Part shown: piece by piece, positions 4,222 to 20,428 of the stretch | Layout: every line of letters starts with the position of its first letter | Numbering within the stretch: the first letter of the stretch is position 1 | Origin: Thermoplasmatales archaeon I-plasma | Lineage (GTDB): Archaea; Thermoplasmatota; Thermoplasmata; Thermoplasmatales; GCA-001856825 | Length of the DNA stretch: 64,000 nucleotides | Reading direction: 5' to 3' | Assembly: GCA_001856825.1 (NCBI GenBank) | Contig: ATMD01000004.1 | Coordinates: 170,568-234,567, forward strand | Program-made: the position numbers and the translations under genes | The notes under the pieces: model-generated | Seen by the model: only the letters and a program-made list of their open reading frames with translations | The model's database searches: none | What the model was told of the DNA's origin: nothing

Positions 4222-4734
4222 ATGATAGTCACACAGACTGAGGATTTTCCAACCACATTTTACGCTCTTGTAGAGATTTCGATGGGAAGCAACTGCAAGT
4301 ATGAATACAATGAAAAGCTGGAAAGCATAATACTCGACAGGGTCCTATTTACTCCCATGAAGTATCCTGCAAACTACGGCATGATCTTAAAGACTCAAGG
4401 CAAGGATGGAGATCCACTTGATGTACTCCTGATCTCTTCGGCAGCTATCCAGCCGGGAATTCTGGTGAAGTGCCGTGCTGTAGGGCTTGCAGAAATGAGG
4501 GATGAGGAAGGAATTGATGATAAAGTTATAGCAGTACCCGTGGATGAGGTTGATCCAAATTCTGAAACTATAAGGGATATTGACGATATTCCGCAGTTCC
4601 AAAAGAATATTTTCAAGCATTTCTTTGAGCATTATAAGGAACTCGAGAGCGAGAAATTCATGAAGTTTATTGGTTTCAAAGGAAAGAAGGTTGCAACGGA
4701 TCTAATTTTGAGTTCCTACAAGGAATCCGATTAA
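4222..4734 (+). CDS. ppa: family I inorganic pyrophosphatase
   Basis: NCKYEYN, YPANYGMI and GDPLDVLLIS motifs. 170 aa. Confidence 0.9.
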   Translation: MIVTQTEDFPTTFYALVEISMGSNCKYEYNEKLESIILDRVLFTPMKYPANYGMILKTQGKDGDPLDVLLISSAAIQPGILVKCRAVGLAEMRDEEGIDDKVIAVPVDEVDPNSETIRDIDDIPQFQKNIFKHFFEHYKELESEKFMKFIGFKGKKVATDLILSSYKESD

Positions 4735-8066: not shown

Positions 8067-8771
8067 TCATTTTAATGGAAACTTAGAGTTATTAATGAAT
8101 AAGTCAATAAAAAACACGAAAGAGAAGATTTCGTCGTTTTCCTCTGATATCCTTTTAAAAGAGGGTCTTATTTTTCTATTTATGTCATGTACGTAACTAT
8201 GCCGTTGTAGTATTATTTTTTTAATTTTAGGATAGAAGTCTTGCGGTAAATAAAAGTCTTCCGTTCCTCTTTTGGCATAAGGAATCACTTTCACTACGCC
8301 GGACTCGCTTATTCGTACGGCATTATTCTTGATTACTTCAAAGAAACTTATCTTTAATGCCCGAGAAAATGCCTTTTCGATATCATCTAAATCCAGAAAA
8401 TTGTACTTTTGCAGAATTGAATAGTTCATTAACTGCTTTATTGTAAATGTTTTCGATCTCCTGTCCAAAAGGTCCTTAAAACTGATAACATCGTCTTGAT
8501 CGACTATATTACTTAATTTCCTCCTCCGAGTAACCAAGTCTAAAAGCATATCCTTAAAATAAACTTCAAATCCGGTCACCATACGTATGGTAGCCGCCTT
8601 TCTAATCCAGATTCTCAGACCGTCCTCTTTGAAGCTCTTTTCTGAACGACTCAGAACATCATCAATACGGATCGATTCCTCGATGAATGTTTGAAGAGGG
8701 ATTCCGAACCTGGAATTCTTGCTTCTTACCTGCTCTATTGCCTTATCTAAATCAAAATGTGATTTGGGCAT
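8067..8771 (-). CDS. hypothetical protein with a C-terminal Rx4H motif (possible HEPN-type protein)
   Basis: Helical 234-aa protein containing KIILQRHSYVHDINRK. AT-rich. The motif is the only evidence. Confidence 0.4.
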   Translation of the reverse strand: MPKSHFDLDKAIEQVRSKNSRFGIPLQTFIEESIRIDDVLSRSEKSFKEDGLRIWIRKAATIRMVTGFEVYFKDMLLDLVTRRRKLSNIVDQDDVISFKDLLDRRSKTFTIKQLMNYSILQKYNFLDLDDIEKAFSRALKISFFEVIKNNAVRISESGVVKVIPYAKRGTEDFYLPQDFYPKIKKIILQRHSYVHDINRKIRPSFKRISEENDEIFSFVFFIDLFINNSKFPLK

Positions 8772-9292: not shown

Positions 9293-9646
9293 TGCATTAT
9301 TTTGTTTATAATTGAGAAGTATGCTTTAATTTGTTCTATTTGCCCTTTGGTGCCTGTCCATTTTCCCTTTGATAGTGGTAAAGCAATACCCATAGTATTA
9401 GAAGTTTCCGTGGGTCGATACAACAAACCTTGATAGAAGTAGGAGTAAGGTTCAAAGAGGGTATGGTAAGCAGCTTCATAGAAGAATAGCCTAGTTTACC
9501 TTAATCAGCAAGGCTAGTCTGGGGGTAGAATTCCCGGTTACTTGGGTCAAGCTACCGCAAAGCTTAAGAACAGCAAAGAGTAAATCCTGGAATCGTATAA
9601 GGCTTGATGGAAGACAGTAGTCTAGCTTCATTATCATTTCACCCTC

Positions 9647-10069
9647 GTGAATTTGCTAGGAGGGCGTTCCTTCTTGCCTGACAACCTGACCTTGGAGAAG
9701 CGCAGCAAGGTCATGGCAAGCATAAGGGGGAAGGATACCAAGCCGGAACTCTTGTTATGGGACCTGCTTGATCATAGGAGATTCAGGAGATACCCGAGGA
9801 TCCACGGGAACCCTGACATAGGGAACAAGTCAATGAAGATCGCGATATTTGTTGACGGGTGCTTCTGGCATGGGTGCCCCAACTGCTACAAGCCTCCTAC
9901 CACTAGGCCCGAGTACTGGTCTATGAAACTTGAAAGGAACATCGCTCACGACAATAAGGTGAGCATGGAACTCAAGGACGATGGTTATACTGTCCTCAGG
10001 TTCTGGGAGCATGAAGTCATTACAGACCCCTCGGGCTGTCTCCGCAAGATAGTGGAGGTGCTTCAATGA
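9647..10069 (+). CDS. vsr: very-short-patch repair endonuclease
   Basis: RSKVMASIRGKDTKPE, IFVDGCFWHGCP and LRFWEHEV. 4-nt ATGA overlap with dcm. Confidence 0.9.
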   Translation: MNLLGGRSFLPDNLTLEKRSKVMASIRGKDTKPELLLWDLLDHRRFRRYPRIHGNPDIGNKSMKIAIFVDGCFWHGCPNCYKPPTTRPEYWSMKLERNIAHDNKVSMELKDDGYTVLRFWEHEVITDPSGCLRKIVEVLQ

Positions 10070-11238
10070 AGGAGCCCTTGACGTTCATAGACCTCTTTGC
10101 TGGAGCAGGAGGATTCTCGCTAGGCTTCCACCAGGCAGGTATGAAGGGGATATTTGCGATAGAACGCGACCCAATGGCATTCGAGACTCTCAGGTACAAC
10201 CTCATAGACAGGAAAAATGCTTTTGCGTGGCCTTCATGGCTGCCAGTTGCGCAAATGGATATAAGGTACGTCATTGACAAATACAAGGAAGAGCTAAAGG
10301 GGCTCAGGGGAGAGGTGGATCTTGTTGCAGGAGGGCCGCCTTGCCAGGGGTTCTCCACCGCGGGCAGGAGGATTGAGCATGACGAGAGGAACCAGATGTT
10401 TAGGGAATACATCAAGTTCGTAGAAATTGTCCAGCCAAGAATGATTCTCTTTGAGAATGTTCTAGGATTTGATATGCGATTCGGTGGTAAACAAGGAAAC
10501 GGGCCTTCGTATTCTAACTTGTTAGGAAATAGATTAAAACAAATTGGATTTGAAAAGCCTGCACTCAGAAAAGTAGACTTTTCGGAATACGGGGTGCCTC
10601 AGTTTCGTAAGAGGATAATACTATATTCTACGAAGAAAGGGATAGATCCAGAAACTTTTTTCGATCAACTTCTTAAGAAGAAGTCACATTCTAAAATATC
10701 AGTAAAACAAGCTACTTCCGACCTTCTACGTTCAAATGGCGAGGTGATAAGTCCGGATTCTCCAAATTTTATGAATGGTGTGTATGGTACTCCTTCAACA
10801 CAGTTCCAAAAGGCAATGCAAGAAAGCAACCAGAAAGGATTACCAGATAGTCATCGGTTCGCCAGACACAGCCAAAAAGTGGAGGAGAGGTTCAAGTTTA
10901 TTCTTCAGTCCCACTCAAAAGGAAAGAATCTTGACAATGTTTCGAAAGTAAATCTTGGATTAAAGAAGAGAACTGTGATACCGCTTGATCCTGATACTCC
11001 ATCTCCAACTCTAACAACTCTACCAGATGATTATATCCATTACGAAGAACCAAGGATTCTGACAGTTAGGGAATACGCCAGATTACAAACATTCCCAGAA
11101 TGGTACGAGTTCAAGGGGAAGTATACCACTGGTGGTAAATTGAGGACATTAGAAACTCCAAGATATACACAAGTTGCGAACGCTGTTCCACCAAAATTCT
11201 CTGAGCTGGTAGCTTTCATCCTTTCAGTACTACATTAA
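10066..11238 (+). CDS. dcm: DNA (cytosine-5)-methyltransferase
   Basis: Motif I FIDLFAGAGGFSLGF, motif IV GGPPCQGFS, motif VI FENV, motif VIII QFRKR, motif X ANAVPP. Confidence 0.95.
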   Translation: MKEPLTFIDLFAGAGGFSLGFHQAGMKGIFAIERDPMAFETLRYNLIDRKNAFAWPSWLPVAQMDIRYVIDKYKEELKGLRGEVDLVAGGPPCQGFSTAGRRIEHDERNQMFREYIKFVEIVQPRMILFENVLGFDMRFGGKQGNGPSYSNLLGNRLKQIGFEKPALRKVDFSEYGVPQFRKRIILYSTKKGIDPETFFDQLLKKKSHSKISVKQATSDLLRSNGEVISPDSPNFMNGVYGTPSTQFQKAMQESNQKGLPDSHRFARHSQKVEERFKFILQSHSKGKNLDNVSKVNLGLKKRTVIPLDPDTPSPTLTTLPDDYIHYEEPRILTVREYARLQTFPEWYEFKGKYTTGGKLRTLETPRYTQVANAVPPKFSELVAFILSVLH

Positions 11239-11242
11239 TACA

Positions 11243-12295
11243 TTACTTAGTTTCTTCCGCCCTAATTGACGTGATTTGTTCAGTTACACGTTCTATATCG
11301 ATTATGAGCCTCGTCAACTTGATAAAGAAGGACTTCATTGTTTTCCTGTCGTACCCTCCATCCTGAGGATTCTTTGCGTGAATGCCTATTTTCTCGCCGT
11401 CAAGGCTGGTTATGGGATTATGAGCAAAATCATCCCTAAATCCTGAATAAGCTATAGTCTCCCGTGAAAAGCGCTCTATTTTTCCCCTAATATCAGGCCC
11501 TATAATTTTGGATTCTTCTAAGATTTTGAAGACATTGGTCATATTCTTCGCTTTTCTGGTCAGGTCAAGTCCATTTCTCGTGAGCGTAAATTCCCTCAAA
11601 ATTTGTTTTCCTAGTTCCCTCATATCATCTTTTGTTCTGCCATTCAAGCCTTCTTTCGGTTCGTCTTCTAAATGAATTACAGTTACAACTAGTTCATTCC
11701 ATGCATTATCCAAATCTGCAAATCTTGAAAGGGCTAATCCCCTAATATATTCAGGGTTGGTCCAGAAGAGGTAAAATTTAGTAGTTGCAGCTAGCAATGT
11801 TGGCTTCAAGTCATCACGACTTGTTGTCCAAATTCTCCCATATGGGTTTGAATGCTCAAAATCTGGAAGATCCGGGAGGTTTGTGTACAAGACCGAATCT
11901 AAGGGATAACGCCTCCTTGATATTTCCTCCAGTACTTCCTTTCCTGATTCTGGATTTCCAGGTAAATTGTTGTCTAAAACAACGATATCAGGAATATTGT
12001 CCGACTGTGCAAGATCTATTAACTTTTTCTTGAATTCCCCCTCTACCTTGCTATCGAACAATTTGTACGGAAGGATCCCTGTAACCTTTATCCGTCCTTT
12101 ATTGTCCAATTGCTTGAACTGGCGATGAACGCTTTCAGCTACCTTCATGATATCTGTGTTAATATCTTCTAAAATGTCTGGAGAATCTTCCATTACGGCG
12201 TACTCAATGGTTAGATCGGACGATGTCCCTTCAGATTTCTGGTCGCTGTTCACAACGTCACCTCGAAGCAAGCCCCACTCATTCCCTTTTCGCAT
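11243..12295 (-). CDS. receiver (REC)-like domain fused to a HEPN-like domain; candidate effector of the upstream kinase
   Basis: REC landmarks AVMEDSPD, DIVVLDNNLPG, SVLYTNLP and DLKPT. C-terminal FRDDFAHN (Rx4H). The likely start is GTG at 12253, overlapping the kinase TGA (GTGA) with GGTGA 4 nt upstream. The track start at 12295 is an alternative. Confidence 0.55.
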   Translation of the reverse strand: MRKGNEWGLLRGDVVNSDQKSEGTSSDLTIEYAVMEDSPDILEDINTDIMKVAESVHRQFKQLDNKGRIKVTGILPYKLFDSKVEGEFKKKLIDLAQSDNIPDIVVLDNNLPGNPESGKEVLEEISRRRYPLDSVLYTNLPDLPDFEHSNPYGRIWTTSRDDLKPTLLAATTKFYLFWTNPEYIRGLALSRFADLDNAWNELVVTVIHLEDEPKEGLNGRTKDDMRELGKQILREFTLTRNGLDLTRKAKNMTNVFKILEESKIIGPDIRGKIERFSRETIAYSGFRDDFAHNPITSLDGEKIGIHAKNPQDGGYDRKTMKSFFIKLTRLIIDIERVTEQITSIRAEETK

Positions 12296-12509
12296 GCGTT
12301 TCCTACAAACTTGATGGACCCCCCGATCTCATTTAATATTTTCTTTACTATATACAGACCTATTCCAGAACCTGCAGTTGATGAAGACCAAGGCCTAAAA
12401 AGATTTGAAGCCTCTCTATCAGATATTCCCTTTCCATCGTCTGTGAACCTTATTGCTAACTTTCCATCCTGATTGATTCGCGCAGTTATTTTTATCAATA
12501 AGGGATTCA

Positions 12510-12520
12510 CTTTTGTACAG
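12510..12520. repeat. target-site duplication, left copy (CTTTTGTACAG)
   Basis: Identical 11-mer at 13731-13741, abutting the other IS end. Confidence 0.85.
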
Positions 12521-12708
12521 GACATTGGGACAGAAGTGACTAATCTTCATCCTTCTTTATGATCAGGAAGGCCTTCTTCCCCAGAAACTCCTTAGGACAG
12601 TCAACTTTGGCACCAGATCCAAATTTTGTGACTGTCCTTTCCATGTAAGCCTGAATGTTCTTCACGGTGATCTGGTTCCCTTCCTTTATCTGTACCTTGC
12701 GCACAAAT

Positions 12709-12717
12709 GTATATATA
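12709..12717 (+). promoter_or_regulatory. putative TATA box for a leaderless transposase mRNA
   Basis: The A/T run GTATATATA lies about 25-30 nt upstream of the ATG at 12742. Confidence 0.3.
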
Positions 12718-12741
12718 CCCCATATATATTACATTTTCGTA

Positions 12742-13710
12742 ATGAGGATCACCCAGCTGGACTATGAGTATTTCCGTGACTCCATTGAAGAACTCATGTC
12801 CCGCTACAGGGAGGAATTCTCCATACCAGTGACAACAAACTGGAGGGATTACGAGTATCTCTACAGGCAGAGGATGAAGGGCATGGCTCTGGAGCTCAGA
12901 GCAATGATAGACGAGTCCTCTTCCTTCGTTGTAGAGGAGTTTGGAAGACCCTCGTTGCTGGAAGCAAGGGAGAAGGTCTTCGTTATCCTTGTGAAGGAGA
13001 TATTCCGACTGAGCAACAGGAAGGCCGCTTACCTCCTTCCTCTTCTCGGAATTAGCAAGGACATCAGTTACAAGACCGTCGAGAGGCTATATTCAGATCC
13101 TCTTGTCCTGATGATATTGAATAACCTCTTCATCAGCTCCGTCATGAGAAAGGGCATCTCTTCCGCTGACACATCGGGTGACGGTACCGGGTATTCCCTC
13201 ACCGTCACGAAGCACTACCGTTCCATGAGGGAGAAAGATGGTGAATTTGTGAAGGAGGGGAAGTTTGTCTATTCATTCGCACTGATGGATCTGGCAACAA
13301 GGATGTATGTTGGATATGCAGTTTCCGTCAGATCGGAGAAGGATGCGTATCATAAGGCATTAGAGATGATAGGTAAGATGCGCATTGACCTTAAGAGCAT
13401 CCGTTTGGACAAATATTACTCGGGACAGAGCATACTTGATGATTTCAATGAAAACACAATGATATTCCTCATCCCTAAGAGCAACTCCAGGATAAGGGGA
13501 AGAAGGAACTGGAGGGAAATAATCAGGCGCTTCATGGATGATCCGATGAACTATCTCAGGGAATACTTCAAGAGGAATGCATCAGAATCTGGATTCTCCT
13601 CAGACAAGAGAGCTACGGGAGGCCTGATATATCAGAGGAGGAAGGACAGAAAAGAAACGTCAGGGTTCTGCAAGGGGCTCATTCACAATTTGATGTTATT
13701 GCACAGTTAG
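12742..13710 (+). CDS. IS transposase (DDE, with a Y-x2-R-x3-E-x6-K signature)
   Basis: SGDGTGYS, IRLDKYYSG and YFKRNASESGFSSDK (the YREK motif of IS4/IS5-like transposases). The ATG at 12742 is preferred to the track start at 12655, whose N-terminus is low-complexity. Confidence 0.8.
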   Translation: MRITQLDYEYFRDSIEELMSRYREEFSIPVTTNWRDYEYLYRQRMKGMALELRAMIDESSSFVVEEFGRPSLLEAREKVFVILVKEIFRLSNRKAAYLLPLLGISKDISYKTVERLYSDPLVLMILNNLFISSVMRKGISSADTSGDGTGYSLTVTKHYRSMREKDGEFVKEGKFVYSFALMDLATRMYVGYAVSVRSEKDAYHKALEMIGKMRIDLKSIRLDKYYSGQSILDDFNENTMIFLIPKSNSRIRGRRNWREIIRRFMDDPMNYLREYFKRNASESGFSSDKRATGGLIYQRRKDRKETSGFCKGLIHNLMLLHS

Positions 13711-13730
13711 AGGGACTTCTGTCCCAATAT

Positions 13731-13741
13731 CTTTTGTACAG
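13731..13741. repeat. target-site duplication, right copy (CTTTTGTACAG)
   Basis: Identical 11-mer at 12510-12520. Confidence 0.85.
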
Positions 13742-15720
13742 TTATCTATAATATTGTCGACCACTAGAGATATTGTCTCAGGAAATATCTCTCTCCTGTA
13801 GTTTATGTTCCCCACTTCGATCTGTAGGCTAATTCCCCTCCTGTCCAGAGATTTCGGCCAGAATTCTCTTACATATTGTTCAATATATGATGGAATGTTA
13901 GTTTCTTCCTTCCTGGACACATCCCACCTTGCCTTTAGAACCAGTTTGTTTCTTTCTTTCAGGAGCTGCAGTTCCTTCACAGCATCTTCTATTTTATCTA
14001 GCAAATTACGTGACAGGTTATTTTCTTTGGCATACTTACCAATATCCAATAGAGCTGGTTCCAGCCGTCTCGCAATAATGTTGAGGTTATGTTCTGCTAT
14101 CAACCTGAGAGTACCTGTCTTGACATATTGGGATGCGGTGCGCATAAATACTGCATCGTCCTCAGCTGCTGCTGCTTCAGACTCTATTTCTTTAAGAGAT
14201 TCCCTGAAGGCTGAAAGATACCTTCCCAGAGCTTTTCTTTTCTCTGGGTCCAGGTCTTTCGAAAGGTCTTCAATAAACTCCAGGCTTTCATATGCCCCTT
14301 TTTCCCGGACAGCTTCTGTGAGGGAGTCAGCGTATTCAACTGATAAAACATTCTTGTCGGACGTTGCCATTCCAGCCAGAAATTCAATAACCTTTGCGTT
14401 TCTTTCTGCTTTTTCCTCCTTGCTGGACGGAAGCTGCCACTCTGATGATTTTACAACATAATTCTCTAGCCTAAGGACTACCTTATCTCGCACGAATTTC
14501 ACGAGTTCATCTCTTGCGTCTCCGTCTTTTATGCCAGAATCCCTGCTTGATGCCTCTTCCCAAACTCCTCGTATATCGGTCACCGCCACCCTCCCGAACA
14601 ATTCTCTAGAAGAAAGGAACCTCCGGTAACCCTGCTGTTTCCTCATGTTCAGCCCCAACCAGTCATCATTAGGTTCACCATAAGGGAAAACCCTTACGCC
14701 ATTTCTATACAAGAAGACATTGCCGTAGTTTACTGGTGCGATTCCAACTGTTCTGGTAAATTTCCCTTTAGCAGCTTGGTCAAGATAGAAAACATCGGCT
14801 TCGATAGAGGTGATAAATTTCAACCCCTCTACTCGCTCATTCAGCTTGTAAAGTTGCACCCCGCGGTCTAACAGTATTGTCGTTAATATCCCATCTTTGA
14901 GCGAAACCGATATCTTTGTTGCTACGCCCTCCAGGTCTTGGAAAAGGGTACTTCGAACTAGACCATTAACTACATCTGCTGGACGCTTCTTCGCGATGCT
15001 TTCTTCTTCAGTTCTTAAAAACGGAGCATCGATTGTAACCTTGAAGCGACCAAGTCCTGCCGGGCTTACTGGATCTAACAGTTTCTGGAAATGTCGCTTC
15101 AATCTTAGTACTCCTTGATAATCCCATTGTTCTCTCAAACCGCCTATTACTAAGAGAGTACCGCTTTCTATTCCTGCAGCAAGCGATGGAGTCTTCTTCT
15201 CTTCGCGGATAACTACGGGTATTTCTTGAAAATCCTTGTCCGGAGCATCCTGAAATTTCTTCCAGTCGGCTATCAGGTGGTTCCAAGAGGATGTCCCACT
15301 AGTTCTCGTATAAAGATCAAGCGTCTCACCAAGTTTATCACAAGAGAACCTTCCTATTCCTTTCCTTCCAACAGGTATCTTTGATAGTTTTAGATCACCT
15401 CTTTCTATTTCATCTAGGGTGTCACGCTTAGATGATTTAGCAACATTCATCCATTTATCTTCTATGTCTTTCCTACTCATTCCAGACCCATTATCTAGTA
15501 TTGCGATCTTGGTCGGGGGGGAATGGTCATCGTTGGAGATGAACTTCACCCAAGCATCCGTTGCTCCGGCGTCATAAGAATTCTTGACGAGCTCGAATAC
15601 AGCCACATATTTGTTTGTTAGCAGTTCCCTCCCAATTAGATCCTTCAAGTAAGTGTTAATGCGAAAATGCAGTGGTTTGAAGTTTGTATAATCCTCATTC
15701 ATGCTCTCTCACCTTAGATC

Positions 15721-15759
15721 CTACCCCTCCAGTATCTCTTCAATCCCCTTCTCTATCAT
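15721..15759 (-). other. 12-codon mini-ORF MIEKGIEEILEG, a relic of a wHTH gene tail
   Basis: Its ATG overlaps the SHOCT gene stop (ATGA, 15756-15759). The sequence is homologous to the 3' end of the wHTH gene at 18979..19275. It ends 18 nt before the GHKL-kinase ATG. Confidence 0.35.
15726..15751. repeat. junction repeat, copy 3 (23/26 identical to copy 2)
   Basis: CCTCCAGTATCTCTTCAATCCCCTTC compared with CCTCCAATATCTCTTCTATCTCCTTC. Confidence 0.7.
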
Positions 15760-16130
15760 TTCCCCAAATCCTCCTTCATCTTATCGTACTGGTCTTTCGA
15801 TATTTCACCCTTTGCATATCTTTCCCTGAGTATCTCCAATGCATCGTCATGGTCCCACCATCTCCATTTGTGGTCAGAATACCTTGAAGCTCTTGATATC
15901 CATCCTATAGACCTTGCGAACCATACTATTGCCCATATGAAGAGGAAGAGGAAGAACAGGCCTATGAGAACTCCCATTACGCTTCCCGCCACTCCTATCC
16001 ATCCTGAGAATGTGTTGGGGAAGGCATGGGAATTGAATATCACGCTGAGTATTGCTGCGATCCCTATGAGTATGAACATGACGGTGAAGCCGTACCAGAA
16101 TACTCTCCTAGGATCACGGCTGTAGGTCAT
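15756..16130 (-). CDS. membrane protein with a C-terminal SHOCT domain
   Basis: Two to three TM helices followed by DDALEILRERYAKGEISKDQYDKMKEDL, the SHOCT signature. Confidence 0.7.
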   Translation of the reverse strand: MTYSRDPRRVFWYGFTVMFILIGIAAILSVIFNSHAFPNTFSGWIGVAGSVMGVLIGLFFLFLFIWAIVWFARSIGWISRASRYSDHKWRWWDHDDALEILRERYAKGEISKDQYDKMKEDLGK

Positions 16131-16175: not shown

Positions 16176-17141
16176 TCAATGTGAATCACTACGCTCTGTT
16201 ATCCGTTTCAACAATTCTGAGTAGTATGACATCAAAGATACAGTGAAGCGATAAGCAAGCAGCGCATCCTCTCTCTTTATCGAGTAAACGTCTTTATGGG
16301 GGCCCATCTGTGTCAATTTGTCCACACGTCTCTTGAGTTCTAAGATATCGTTTATGAATGAGTCCAGTGACTCCTGTATGCTATTTACCCTTTCATCCTT
16401 CGTTGGCTGATTGACCTCCGATTCCGAATCCTCGTTTATTTTCTCCTTTATCATTTTCAGGTATTTGCTTAGATAAGGGTCCATTCGGTCCCAAGCAGAC
16501 CTGAGGTCTGACACTACCTGATCCGCAGGCGCATTCTCCATTATGCCCTTCCCAGCCTTTTCTATGAATTCCACAACTTCGTGGTACCCTTCAAGCTTAG
16601 GCCTCTCCATTTCAACTATCCATCTTTCAGAGTAACCCAGGTCACGCAAGAATTTGGCCCACTCTCTTTCTGAGAACTTCCAAGGGATATGAAGCATGAA
16701 TCTTTTGCTGGTGGAGATCGGCTGAATACTATCTGGACGATGTGGAATAATTTTTCCTTCCAAGACAAGATTTAACGTTATATCGTCAACTCTCTTTGAC
16801 TCAATTTCCTTGAGGTCTTCGATGGAAATTCTTAAAATGTAACTAGCGTTGGCTACCATGTGTGGATCGACGGAACCCTGACTGATGTAGCTGTGCGAGA
16901 CAGGTATATTCTGAAACACTAAAGCAAGATTAGTTTCATCAATCGAATAGCCAACATTATAATAAGGTTGGCCGGGTTGGTCTAACTTCTTGCCGTACTC
17001 GGCTCCAACATTTAGCTTGATTTCAAAAACTGCAATTGGTACTTTGTTCAAAACTTTCCATTCAATAGGATCATTTATGAAGATTTTACCATCGAAGTCA
17101 GCTTGGAATTCAGACAATTTAACCATATATCTTGTCACCAT
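16176..17141 (-). CDS. hypothetical protein: beta-rich N-terminal half and helical C-terminal half
   Basis: 321-aa ORF in an operon-like array. No motif I can assign. Confidence 0.5.
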   Translation of the reverse strand: MVTRYMVKLSEFQADFDGKIFINDPIEWKVLNKVPIAVFEIKLNVGAEYGKKLDQPGQPYYNVGYSIDETNLALVFQNIPVSHSYISQGSVDPHMVANASYILRISIEDLKEIESKRVDDITLNLVLEGKIIPHRPDSIQPISTSKRFMLHIPWKFSEREWAKFLRDLGYSERWIVEMERPKLEGYHEVVEFIEKAGKGIMENAPADQVVSDLRSAWDRMDPYLSKYLKMIKEKINEDSESEVNQPTKDERVNSIQESLDSFINDILELKRRVDKLTQMGPHKDVYSIKREDALLAYRFTVSLMSYYSELLKRITERSDSH

Positions 17142-17174: not shown

Positions 17175-17981
17175 TCATTTTATTTTTGCCTCCAATAAAT
17201 CCAAATTCTCTAGGGCCTTCTTTTGTTCTTGTCCTTTCAATAAAGTGTTTGCTTGCGGGGGCCATATAATATCGCAGGCACTCTTTACAGGGTCATATAT
17301 TATTATGCCTGAACCTTGCATCTTTAACTTCTTCAAAACAGATTTACCAGCTTCATTCATATTATTTCTTTTCATTGATTCTTCGATAAGTAATCCAGGG
17401 GTAACAACAGCATATACATTGCGGGAGAAGGTTGAGGCATCAGCTAGCTGGCTCAGAAGATGGTCAAAAGCACCAGATTTAGCCTTGACTTCAACAGAAA
17501 GGACATACCTGCTAAATTTTCCCAGTAAGGACTCCTTCTTAAATAGCGTGATATCAGCAAACCTGATGCCTTGTTTCCCTCGCTTATTATGAGTGTCAAT
17601 TACGATCAAGTTTTTGAAACTATTTTGTTTTCTCAGAAATTTAACAATGTCTTTATAAATATCCTTCTCGTCATCTACATGACCAAATACCTTCTTTACT
17701 TTGGAGTCAGGAAGCCCCGCGTCTTTCCATATGCTTTGGATTAAAATAGCATAGGGATCCCATCCTCTGAATTTATCTTGATATGAGCATCTTTTGCAGA
17801 CATTTTTGAGTGCTTTGATTCTATCTTCTTTTTTCAGCTGATTATATTTTTTCAATTCCATTTTCGGTTTATCTCCTTGCTGAATTACGTTCAGCAAATT
17901 GAGATAACAGACAGTATCTCCACTGCTATCAATCAGTCTCTTAATGATTTCATCAATATCCAGTCCAAAATATTTGGTCAT
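17175..17981 (-). CDS. PD-(D/E)xK nuclease-fold protein (putative)
   Basis: GIRFADITLF, then 17 residues (KKESLLGKFSRYVLSVE up to the motif), then LSVEVKAKSG, giving D...E-x-K spacing, followed by a Q-containing helix (LLSQLADAS). Confidence 0.5.
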   Translation of the reverse strand: MTKYFGLDIDEIIKRLIDSSGDTVCYLNLLNVIQQGDKPKMELKKYNQLKKEDRIKALKNVCKRCSYQDKFRGWDPYAILIQSIWKDAGLPDSKVKKVFGHVDDEKDIYKDIVKFLRKQNSFKNLIVIDTHNKRGKQGIRFADITLFKKESLLGKFSRYVLSVEVKAKSGAFDHLLSQLADASTFSRNVYAVVTPGLLIEESMKRNNMNEAGKSVLKKLKMQGSGIIIYDPVKSACDIIWPPQANTLLKGQEQKKALENLDLLEAKIK

Positions 17982-18044
17982 TCATCTCTCCTCCAATATC
18001 TCTTCTATCTCCTTCAGATGTTTTGCAACTTTCCCTAATTTCAT
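17982..18044 (-). other. 20-codon mini-ORF MKLGKVAKHLKEIEEILEER, a relic of a wHTH gene tail
   Basis: Its ATG overlaps the stop of the 312-aa gene (ATGA, 18041-18044). Its TGA directly abuts the ATG of the 268-aa gene (TGAATG). Confidence 0.35.
17990..18033. repeat. junction repeat, copy 2
   Basis: The 41-nt core at 17993-18033 matches 18990-19030 at 39/41 positions. Confidence 0.85.
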
Positions 18045-18979
18045 TCCCTCCACCTCACAGAAATAGAATCGTCTGAATATCCAAAATGTTTCATCAATGA
18101 CTTTACCAATTGTTCTATTCTTCTGGAGCCATAATTGGTCTCTAAATAGAGGCCGTTCGATAGCTTATAGGGATTGGCGAACTTATTATTTTTGTTTTGG
18201 TGGATTGGCTCAGTGTTGATTAACCACCTATCTGGGCCCGACGGGAGCCTAAAGGGATTTGTTATCTTCCCCTTGGAAATTAACCATTCGGCGGTCTTTA
18301 TGAGAATTTGATTGGATTTGTTGACATTAAATACTTCCCCATTTATAGATAGACTGATTGGGCGAAGAGGCCTATTCCGTTTTCTTCCACCTTTAATATT
18401 ATAAGATTTAGTCGATTCCAGTGGCGTATCTTTCACGGGCAGTACTTCATCCTTTGAGCTTCTTTCAGATTGAGTAAGGATAGGCTCTGCCGTGACTTCT
18501 CCGAATGATTCTAAATTCGCAATAGAGATTGACTTAATTGCCACTTTGGATTCCTCGTCGTTAATGATGTCCCATTCTATGATCTTCTTCTCAGGCAATC
18601 TGGTTACTTTATATGTGTCATACAGCTCCCAATGATTTCCATCCGTGGCAATAAAAAATTTCACACCTTCAGAAACGCAGTATGAAATGTGCTGCTGAAG
18701 GTCTTCGTTCTTGCCAAGTTTCTTGGCCCCGATAAAGGCCCTAGGACTGTTCTTATTGTGTAAAAACAGGGCATAATCTGGTCTTCCTGCATCGGTTGAG
18801 TATTCTGGTTTGACTTGTTCTGGGTCTTCGGTGTCCCAACCTAGTCCCCTTAAAAACGGGTCGACGAGGGAGTACCTGACAAGCGCTTCGTTTTTAGAAA
18901 ATTCGTCCCTGTATTTTCTAATTTTCTCTCTTAGCTCTCTTATTAATTCAATGTTATCTCCAATAGATATTTTGGCCAT
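18041..18979 (-). CDS. HsdR-N-terminal-like (type I restriction enzyme R N-domain) PD-(D/E)xK protein with an unknown C-terminal domain
   Basis: NEALVRYSLVDPFLRGLGW, GRPDYALF, AFIGAKKLG, QQHISY and KFFIATDGNHWELYD. The expected catalytic Glu of ExK is Gly (GAK). Confidence 0.6.
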   Translation of the reverse strand: MAKISIGDNIELIRELREKIRKYRDEFSKNEALVRYSLVDPFLRGLGWDTEDPEQVKPEYSTDAGRPDYALFLHNKNSPRAFIGAKKLGKNEDLQQHISYCVSEGVKFFIATDGNHWELYDTYKVTRLPEKKIIEWDIINDEESKVAIKSISIANLESFGEVTAEPILTQSERSSKDEVLPVKDTPLESTKSYNIKGGRKRNRPLRPISLSINGEVFNVNKSNQILIKTAEWLISKGKITNPFRLPSGPDRWLINTEPIHQNKNNKFANPYKLSNGLYLETNYGSRRIEQLVKSLMKHFGYSDDSISVRWRE

Positions 18980-19877: not shown

Positions 19878-20055
19878 AGTCCAAGATTGTCATCGTGAAG
19901 AAGCTCCCCGGTGGTAATTGGAAACCTAACGAACGGGTTATCGTGCCATAACTTGACACTCCTGCCTTCCGGGAGGTTTCAATTTTTGGAGACTTTTGTC
20001 GTCGTGCACCACAGTTTGGAATTAAAAAGCTCTCGTCATGATATAAATGTCTCTA

Positions 20056-20130
20056 CGGGCCCGCCGGGATTTGAACCCGGGTCGTCGGCTCCGAAGGCCA
20101 AAAGGATGATCCAAACTACCCCACGGGCCC
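20056..20130 (-). tRNA. tRNA-Arg (anticodon UCG)
   Basis: Hand-folded cloverleaf: acceptor GGGCCCG/CGGGCCC, T-arm CCGGG-TTCAAAT-CCCGG, anticodon arm TTGGC-CTTCGGA-GCCGA. No encoded CCA. Confidence 0.85.
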
Positions 20131-20257
20131 GCAACTATATTCCGTAAATGTTATAAAAGATGCCTTTTCCATTGTTATTCCTGAGAAGTGAAGTGTGAAC
20201 ATGCATATGGTTACAGTAATCAGTTAGTTTTTTATCATCATAGGCATAAGGTGCTTA

Positions 20258-20330
20258 GCGAGCGTGGTGTAGCCTGGTAACACGTGAGCTTGCCAAGCTC
20301 ATGCCTCGGGTTCAAATCCCGGCGCTCGCA
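20258..20330 (+). tRNA. tRNA-Gly (anticodon GCC)
   Basis: Acceptor GCGAGCG/CGCTCGC, D-arm GTGT/ACAC, anticodon arm TGAGC-TTGCCAA-GCTCA, T-loop TTCAAAT. Confidence 0.9.
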
Positions 20331-20428
20331 CTGAAATTGGAAATTGGTGATATTATTCAGCTTATGAATCAATAATGATCATCACCGCTCCATATTGGAG
20401 GTGTTTATACCGTCCTTTAATGATTTAG

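Follow-up and report, generated by a model that had tools for sequence, protein, structure and literature searches.

Soluble kinases with two HATPase domains were described by Bellieny-Rabelo, Pretorius and Moleleki in 2021 (PMC8011034). Their computational study, which began at a Pectobacterium locus and covered bacteria only, found kinases composed of HATPase_c_3, a DHp-like 'HEF_HK' domain and HATPase_c in 628 bacterial strains, and these kinases were related to paraMORCs. Adjacent to the kinases were response regulator-like (RR-like) genes ('Response_reg_2'), a dominant upstream C5-methylase, often Vsr and sometimes HNH_2. Apart from the receiver, no known domain was recognized in the RR-like protein, the effector was left unassigned, and a regulatory link to restriction-modification (R-M) was suggested (PMC8011034). 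Here, we analyzed a locus in a stretch of 64,000 nucleotides from Thermoplasmatales archaeon I-plasma (contig ATMD01000004.1, positions 170,568–234,567; hereafter the window). It comprised the genes of a Vsr endonuclease, a Dcm-type C5-methylase, a double-GHKL kinase interrupted by an insertion sequence (IS), and a partner protein with a receiver (REC) and a HEPN-like domain (Table 1). The locus belongs to the R-M-associated two-component-like system of the 2021 study, as a divergent member from an archaeon. In our general model, to which we assign a probability of roughly 0.6, it is a copy, inactivated by the IS, of a four-gene cassette that moves horizontally, a conflict system in which a relay would lead to an RNase.

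The window family and the 2021 system (PMC8011034) shared a soluble double-HATPase kinase, a DHp-like H-box, an RR-like neighbor, a C5-methylase, a frequent Vsr and an occasional HNH_2. An earlier note on this DNA, made from the sequence alone, had proposed a two-component defense module and knew of no described version with a GHKL sensing module; the 2021 report of a HATPase_c_3 kinase with an RR-like gene, C5-methylase and Vsr overturned that statement. However, the two systems also differed. The 2021 set was bacterial and the window copy is archaeal; dcm was located upstream there, whereas dcm and vsr were convergent and downstream in the window; and the C-terminus of the RR-like protein, where no known domain had been found there, was assigned to HEPN in the window family. 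The Pfam model HEF_HK (PF19191) matched 0 of 35 members of the window family, being detected neither in the window kinase (E ≤ 1) nor in 30 homologues (E ≤ 0.01) nor in five proteobacterial members (E ≤ 0.1). Response_reg_2 (PF19192) had no match in the window protein and matched weakly in 14 of 61 and 9 of 115 relatives (best E 3.5e-4). Because HEF_HK never matched, the identity with the 2021 family rests on architecture and context, by which the window family is a divergent branch or a sister family of that architecture.

Other systems were also compared with the cassette. In Detocs (DtcA/DtcB/DtcC), a His-Asp relay drives a defense effector (Rousset et al., 2023; bioRxiv 10.1101/2023.01.24.525353). 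The likeness, which was one of logic and not of homology, included the His-Asp phosphorelay, a response regulator carrying an effector instead of a DNA-binding domain, and swappable effectors. However, Detocs uses a TPR-based sensor where the window kinase has a GHKL ATPase, and no TPR sensor was detected by Pfam at the kinase N-terminus. Detocs also needs the stand-alone buffer receiver DtcB; no such ORF was present between 9.6 and 16.2 kb, in agreement with the earlier note, and in the four related loci with a stand-alone REC this was the only partner. In addition, most Detocs effectors are PNP ATP nucleosidases, and a methylase is not obligatory in Detocs. A relationship in sequence between the window cassette and Detocs was not detected. 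Thus, of the Detocs-like logic proposed earlier, the effector-bearing response regulator was retained and membership was rejected for want of the TPR sensor and DtcB. A figure on DefensePredictor showing HATPase plus REC was likewise rejected as the same system, since the text describes a TPR/PNP (Detocs-like) example.

Fusions of paraMORC with HEPN (Ymh family) in R-M contexts have been proposed as analogues of PrrC/RloC, which are anticodon nucleases under the guard of R-M systems (Anantharaman et al., 2013; PMC3710099). They resemble the cassette in having an ATPase sensor and a HEPN RNase within R-M neighborhoods, but ATPase and HEPN there form one polypeptide, whereas in the window two proteins would be connected by a kinase-receiver relay. 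In GHKL-Shedu, the paraMORC3 protein VcSduA is a validated nuclease in which mutants of the ATPase and of the effector both abolish defense (PMC12137116). Its N-terminal GHKL ATPase is similarly proposed to control a defense effector; unlike the window cassette, it has a fused PD-(D/E)xK DNase effector and no kinase, receiver or methylase. The cassette was not described by Kaur et al. (2020) or in the BREX survey, and the literature search found no paper in which a receiver is fused to HEPN or a kinase relays to a HEPN protein.

The IS in the window kinase gene had terminal inverted repeats of 17 nt (12521–12537 and 13715–13731) and was flanked by the exact 11-bp direct repeat CTTTTGTACAG (12510–12520 and 13731–13741). 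Its transposase ORF (12655–13710, forward strand, 351 aa) matched IS5/DDE_Tnp_1 weakly, and the IS was found as a single copy within the window. The ORF positions in the earlier note were verified. After in silico excision of the IS and one repeat copy, the 3′ fragment was in frame with the 5′ part and a continuous ORF of 743 aa was obtained, as had been claimed. The same protein exists in nature: the protein of cluster P0008, which is encoded on 15 metagenomic contigs, was 100% identical to the restored kinase over 743 aa. In the intact allele L089, the window segments ending at 12520 and starting at 13731 join at one copy of the 11-bp target, which represents the empty site. The insertion point was between the N-box and the G1-box of the kinase. 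Since the IS splits the ATP-binding domain there, the kinase domain would not bind ATP and the relay would be off. The window copy is thus probably inactive. A 54-aa ORF (12540–12704, reverse strand) was also observed within the IS, antisense to the transposase.

By its sequence, the restored protein is made up of four parts, namely a paraMORC-type GHKL ATPase, a conserved middle region, a DHp domain with H538, and a histidine kinase (HK) catalytic (CA) domain. Both GHKL domains were above the Pfam thresholds, the C-terminal one as HATPase_c at residues 644–743 (E 2e-18), and HATPase_c_3 and HATPase_c were both found in 30 of 30 homologues, which shared 31–66% identity and formed the kinase alignment. 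The motifs quoted earlier were all present, and at both ATP sites the Bergerat-fold motifs were invariant in most of their key residues. Invariant columns comprised E37/N41/D44, D70/G72/G74 and G112/K114-G117 in the N-terminal site, and H538, N650/N654/K657, D681/G685, F695 and G706/G708 in the C-terminal kinase. The N-terminal domain showed weak profile matches to MutL, PMS1, HtpG and TRAP1; its intact Bergerat motifs and its R-M neighborhood (Dcm/Vsr) were as expected for MORC/paraMORC proteins (PMC2292703). The family profile at about 525–750 aligned with the complete DHp and CA domains of ZraS, VicK and HK853 (E 1e-18 to 1e-15); CpxA was matched as well, and the matches to solved HKs ranged overall from E 1e-18 to 1e-11. 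H538, which lies in 'LIAEHNL' 112 residues before the N-box, fell on the phospho-accepting His of 'SHELRTPL' in the profile alignment with VicK and HK853, and the possible phospho-His box of the earlier note was thereby substantiated. It is predicted that the C-terminal kinase would autophosphorylate H538.

Between the GHKL and DHp domains, the middle region (~162–524, about 360 residues) contained a strongly conserved block, F315-G390, with the invariant residues D347, R361, R366, E383 and R387. Such a block would fit a reading in which the double-GHKL protein is itself an ATP-dependent restriction endonuclease that acts with Dcm in a type II-like manner, the REC-HEPN protein being an accessory or back-up like PrrC with EcoprrI. 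BbrUII and HgiDII have C5 methylases as partners (M.HgiDII). The best NCBIfam match of the N-terminus was to the model of these GHKL type II restriction enzymes (NF050001; residues 22–233, E 1e-18), the PADLOC model 'REase_II' was matched by 27 of the 30 kinase family members, and HNH_2 genes followed the partner gene in the eight loci that had them. However, the NF050001 match scored 67 bits, where the cut-off is 550, and was confined to the GHKL domain and its immediate extension; the remainder of the BbrUII/HgiDII enzymes, presumably the nuclease, is replaced by DHp and CA in the window kinase. A nuclease fold was detected nowhere in the kinase protein by Pfam or profile searches, and among the cassette proteins no counterpart to the cognate DNA endonuclease of a classical type II R-M system was detected. 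With the DHp/CA and the receiver Asp fully conserved, phosphotransfer is more likely central than accessory, and we consider a restriction endonuclease unlikely.

The partner gene was coupled to the kinase gene by a 4-nt overlap of stop and start (GTGA), with the upstream sequence GAGGTGA-N4-GTG. Both the overlap and the GGTGA reported before were confirmed, and the overlap was conserved in homologues. NCBI annotations contained the 336-aa as well as the 350-aa version of the protein. The AlphaFold2 (AF2) model of the partner (predicted local distance difference test, pLDDT, 81.8; predicted template modeling score, pTM, 0.81) displayed a beta/alpha domain with five strands and, C-terminal to it, a helical domain, and its top Foldseek matches were all receiver domains with a probability of ~1. 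The profile of the partner family matched RR468, PhoP, PhoB and CheY, among others, with E-values down to 1e-7, and 99 of 115 diverse relatives matched the Pfam model Response_reg. The acidic pair E22/D23 was at least 90% conserved, and the Thr/Ser position in strand 4 was T124 in the window and S124 in the family. These features, together with the gene coupling, point to D94 as the residue that would accept the phosphoryl group from H538.

Only four columns were invariant in the 115 relatives, i.e., D94, R171, R273 and H278, and N274, D182 and R310 were at least 90% conserved. R273 and H278 form an Rx4H motif. HEPN domains are defined by Rx4-6H with a polar residue (N/D/H) after the R, by an up-down bundle of four helices in which the motif closes helix 3 and leads into the loop before helix 4, and by metal-independent RNase activity (PMC3710099). 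The motif of the partner family agreed with this definition in its position and in the D or N after the R. In the AF2 model of the domain alone (pLDDT 85), the motif ended a long helix and was followed by a loop or hairpin and a final long helix. HEPN-clan Pfam families matched among the relatives were RiboL-PSP (9), MAE_28990 (7), Swt1 (6), Abi_2 (3), Apea (3) and HEPN_RES_NTD1 (1). All these matches were sub-threshold (best E 1.7e-5), but the six families, with ~29 matches, were the commonest after the receiver families, and unrelated families appeared once or twice each. The domain was almost always located behind a receiver, in at least 356 cluster representatives at 50% identity, nearly all of ~300 aa. 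When the C-terminal profile was searched against 1.84 billion representatives, only REC-fused relatives were returned, with no bridge to other HEPN architectures. On these grounds, the C-terminal domain probably belongs to HEPN, and the partner is probably an RNase that would be active when phosphorylated.

Several results weigh against the proposed reading. The window partner scored 17.9 bits against Response_reg (cut-off 30.2), and the conserved basic residue after strand 5 was R146, not the canonical receiver Lys. Among the receiver landmarks noted earlier, D94 and the acidic pair were upheld and T124 was present, but the 'Lys-Pro' (K150-P151) was not a conserved position. The window partner itself had no Pfam HEPN match. 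When the C-terminal domain alone was compared with PDB and BFVD by Foldseek, no HEPN structure matched significantly (best HepT, probability 0.15–0.35), and hhalign of the C-terminal profile against the RiboL-PSP HEPN protein encoded nearby, a template consisting of a single sequence, gave no signal. The REC and HEPN calls rest on family-level evidence, the window partner itself being below the Pfam thresholds for both. The middle-region profile had no relative among solved structures when compared with PDB sequences, so that it yielded no match for the S5-fold transducer of MORC/paraMORC proteins (PMC2292703). The PADLOC check proposed in the earlier note matched no dedicated system; its matches, to REase_II, MzaB and PDC-M43B, were of a generic GHKL kind. 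Finally, only two full-length plasmid copies were found among 72,556 records, and essentially none in phages.

The HEPN negatives are compatible with another explanation, in which the partner C-terminus is an unrelated helical binding or scaffolding module and RNxLAH resembles HEPN by convergence. However, the invariant R and H had the correct 4-residue spacing, the residue after the R was polar, the motif was at the end of a helix, and six HEPN-clan models were matched by different members while no other clan was enriched. Convergence therefore seems very improbable. The HEPN-type effector claimed before was sustained by the invariant motif and by the weak but converging profile matches, though not by Foldseek.

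The methylase linkage was analyzed in 86 loci, including six contigs with close partner homologues and 80 species-genome loci chosen by kinase similarity alone. An orthologous C5-methylase (37–89% identity) adjoined the kinase in 86 of 86. In the six contigs, the intact kinase was directly upstream of the partner and the same Dcm was convergent downstream, even at 45% partner identity; in the 80 further loci, the methylase beside the kinase usually ended at the kinase gene start. A translationally coupled gene was located downstream of the kinase in nearly all loci, and 66 of 81 such genes were homologous to the window partner. The gene-family census gave the kinase in 83 loci, Dcm in 82, REC-HEPN in 67, Vsr in 22 and HNH_2 in 8. 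The target recognition domain (TRD) of the methylase could be aligned almost gap-free across 75 cassettes; the methylase is a dedicated lineage. No DNA nuclease was consistently present across the cassettes, and the sole recurrent nuclease gene was HNH_2 (8 of 83 loci).

The methylase is a core, obligatory and co-inherited component of the cassette, and vsr-dcm, taken earlier as the mere setting of the pair, is part of the unit. This obligatory co-inheritance makes the unit R-M-like rather than Detocs-like. Vsr has an accessory role, keeping down the mutational cost of 5-methylcytosine (m5C), and it was adjacent to the cassette in 22 of the 86 loci. A HhH-GPD/EndoIII glycosylase replaced Vsr in ~10 loci (L008, L009, L014 and L027 had no Vsr match); it is plausibly a T:G mismatch glycosylase with the same job as Vsr in repairing m5C deamination damage. 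The boundaries of the unit in the window are 9647–15702, with the four genes Vsr, Dcm, kinase and REC-HEPN.

The partner varied among lineages. In 13 loci (class 2), the receiver protein (222–245 aa) had a different helical C-terminus without Rx4H, and its gene was followed by an extra gene of ~220 aa. The extra gene had conserved 'GHG' and 'CLSC(N/D)S' motifs and no Pfam match, and by these motifs it may be reminiscent of the caspase/CHAT His-Cys dyad. Three loci contained a stand-alone receiver (127–138 aa) as the partner plus a gene of ~360–390 aa between methylase and kinase, which may be a separately encoded effector. Distant plasmid cassettes from Acaryochloris and Burkholderia encoded a double-GHKL kinase, both ends of which matched the family hidden Markov model (HMM), and partners of ~390 aa whose C-termini were unrelated. 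In the Burkholderia partner, no receiver was recognizable by HMM, and the gene order there was kinase-partner-vsr-dcm. The distribution was broad and patchy, with many phyla of bacteria and archaea represented, and the system occurred in the genomes of hundreds of species, several archaeal lineages among them. Kinase inactivation recurred, with frameshifts in L068 and L073 and the IS in the window. Effector swapping, patchy spread, decayed copies and location on an island with a further HEPN gene and genes of R-M type are hallmarks of conflict systems, and the cassette is most likely a self/non-self conflict system.

These observations also bear on the interpretation offered in 2021 (PMC8011034), that the pair is a regulatory two-component system controlling the methylase or R-M genes in a housekeeping signaling role. 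The HK and REC features are indeed genuine. However, the partner had no DNA-binding output domain, its invariant R...Rx4H is typical of a catalytic site, and it had HEPN-clan affinities. In addition, its C-termini were swapped between lineages, and the distribution was patchy, island-borne and often decayed. We regard a regulatory role as highly unlikely.

For the intact cassette, the following mechanism was proposed. The methylase would mark host DNA. The GHKL domain and the middle module might form an ATP-using sensor of the DNA state, for instance unmodified incoming DNA, or of another invasion cue; this role is suggested by analogy with the GHKL clamps of MutL and MORC and of restriction or Shedu enzymes of the GHKL type. 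The kinase, whose sequence features were observed, would then autophosphorylate at H538, and the phosphoryl group would pass to D94 of the partner, for which the residues and the gene coupling were seen. Phosphorylation of the receiver would drive dimerization and assemble the Rx4H RNase site, a step considered because HEPN RNases are known as dimers. RNA cleavage would arrest growth, which could amount to abortive infection or, once methylation is lost, to post-segregational killing. The specific version, in which the paraMORC GHKL module reads the methylation or invasion state, with unmethylated DNA as the trigger, and fires the kinase, receiver and HEPN RNase in turn, is tentative and, in our view, somewhat less probable than its negation.

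The same mechanism might also serve chiefly selfish addiction: loss of the cassette would dilute methylation, the sensor would fire, and the RNase would kill segregants, with any antiviral effect incidental. This behavior is known for type II R-M systems, as summarized in PMC8011034, and it would fit two observations: a dedicated methylase lineage is strictly co-inherited with the kinase, and the kinase is frequently inactivated with the methylase intact (the window, L068 and L073). However, the cassette was rare on plasmids, on which addiction modules are usually enriched, and addiction is compatible with a defense role, neither being exclusive; the current data fit both alike. As the chief function, addiction appears improbable to us.

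Table 1. Positions of the cassette, its variants and its neighbors. Positions are those of the window except where a related locus or contig (L number) is given.
Feature	Position	Strand	Remarks
Vsr very-short-patch-repair endonuclease	9647..10069	+	140 aa; Pfam Vsr E 3.6e-18
Dcm-type C5 cytosine DNA methyltransferase	10066..11238	+	390 aa; Pfam DNA_methylase E 3e-48; convergent with the kinase operon
REC-HEPN response regulator	11243..12253	-	336 aa from GTG 12253; alternatively 350 aa from ATG 12295
HEPN-like helical effector domain	11246..11767	-	residues ~163–336; R171-G172, D182, Rx4H
Rx4H motif RDDFAH (in FRDDFAHN)	11420-11437	-	R273-H278; family consensus RNxLAH
Receiver (REC) domain	11816..12214	-	residues ~14–146; E22-D23, D94, T124, R146
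Predicted phospho-acceptor D94	11972-11974	-	invariant in 115 relatives
Kinase 3′ fragment	12250..12520	-	residues ~654–743 + stop; rest of CA domain (G1, F and G2 boxes)
Insertion sequence (IS)	12521-13730	+	1,210 bp; 17-nt terminal inverted repeats, 11-bp target duplications, DDE transposase ORF
Kinase 5′ part	13742..15702	-	residues 1–653; GHKL/paraMORC ATPase, middle region, DHp, CA start (N-box N650/N654)
DHp phospho-His H538 (predicted)	14089-14091	-	invariant; aligned on the His of solved HKs
GHKL/paraMORC ATPase	15220-15606	-	residues 33–161; Pfam HATPase_c_3 E 1.2e-24
Class-2 variant cassettes (13 loci)	L035 9289-10649; L042 2838-4239; L074 9501-10881
Stand-alone-receiver variants	L013 5814-9660; L037 5819-9657; L061 5910-9612
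Distant cassettes	L091 3141-7804; L092 4459-9905		L091, Acaryochloris pREB1; L092, Burkholderia glumae plasmid
Frameshifted kinase genes	L068 6995-9264; L073 6983-9648		two or three ORFs; two bacterial genomes
HhH-GPD/EndoIII-type Fe-S DNA glycosylase	L008 10280-10972; L027 10118-10855
Pyrophosphatase	4222-4734		housekeeping flank
Stand-alone HEPN gene	8070-8771	-	234 aa; Pfam HEPN_RiboL-PSP E 1.5e-11, 45 bits vs 28.4; just beyond vsr
SHOCT membrane protein	15756-16130	-	124 aa; SHOCT domain C-terminal; directly upstream of the kinase; L088 2756-3130
Two ORFs	16176-17141; 17175-17981	-	321 and 268 aa; no significant family match; between the cassette and the HSDR_N-like gene
HSDR_N-like ORF	18041-18979	-	312 aa; N-terminal HSDR_N match (N-terminus of type I restriction R subunits, nuclease fold) E 7e-7; without helicase part
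tRNA-Arg(TCG)	20055-20131	-	edge of the lower-GC stretch
tRNA-Gly(GCC)	20258-20331	+	edge of the lower-GC stretch

The cassette was located in a stretch of lower GC content at ~4.8–20 kb, with housekeeping genes on either side; the right flank began with an M48 peptidase and the kdp genes from 20.4 kb. This stretch, edged by two tRNA genes, is consistent with an integrated island. The position of the SHOCT gene was kept in the intact-allele contigs L088–L090. Of the two ORFs beyond it, the one of 321 aa showed a weak match to the PADLOC model PDC-M62B (E 4e-4), and the HSDR_N-like ORF is possibly another orphan restriction-type gene of the island. A gene of 224 aa (9414–10088) was found in L088 in the same relative position as the RiboL-PSP HEPN gene of the window.

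The host belongs to the I-plasma lineage of the Thermoplasmatales, and the cassette genes are annotated as 'hypothetical' there. Because the locus is a decayed copy, its biological importance for this genome is small, and its meaning concerns the family. The analysis corrected the boundaries of the unit, assigned the orphan effector domain to HEPN, which we hold to be probable, and showed that members of the kinase family occur in many lineages of bacteria and archaea. With the HEPN assignment, the 2021 description becomes a directly testable mechanism, in which E37, H538, D94 and R273/H278 are the sites for point mutants. If the model holds, the cassette would stand next to Detocs as another defensive two-component family, with a distinct mechanism, would couple methylation-based self-marking to an RNA-targeting abortive response via a phosphorelay, and would provide a function for a widespread gene trio labeled 'ATP-binding protein', 'response regulator' or 'hypothetical'. 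If the methylation-reading version is also true, it would be an R-M-like immune or addiction system whose restriction arm is a signaling relay and not a DNase, and the first link of epigenetic self-marking to His-Asp phosphotransfer with swappable effectors.

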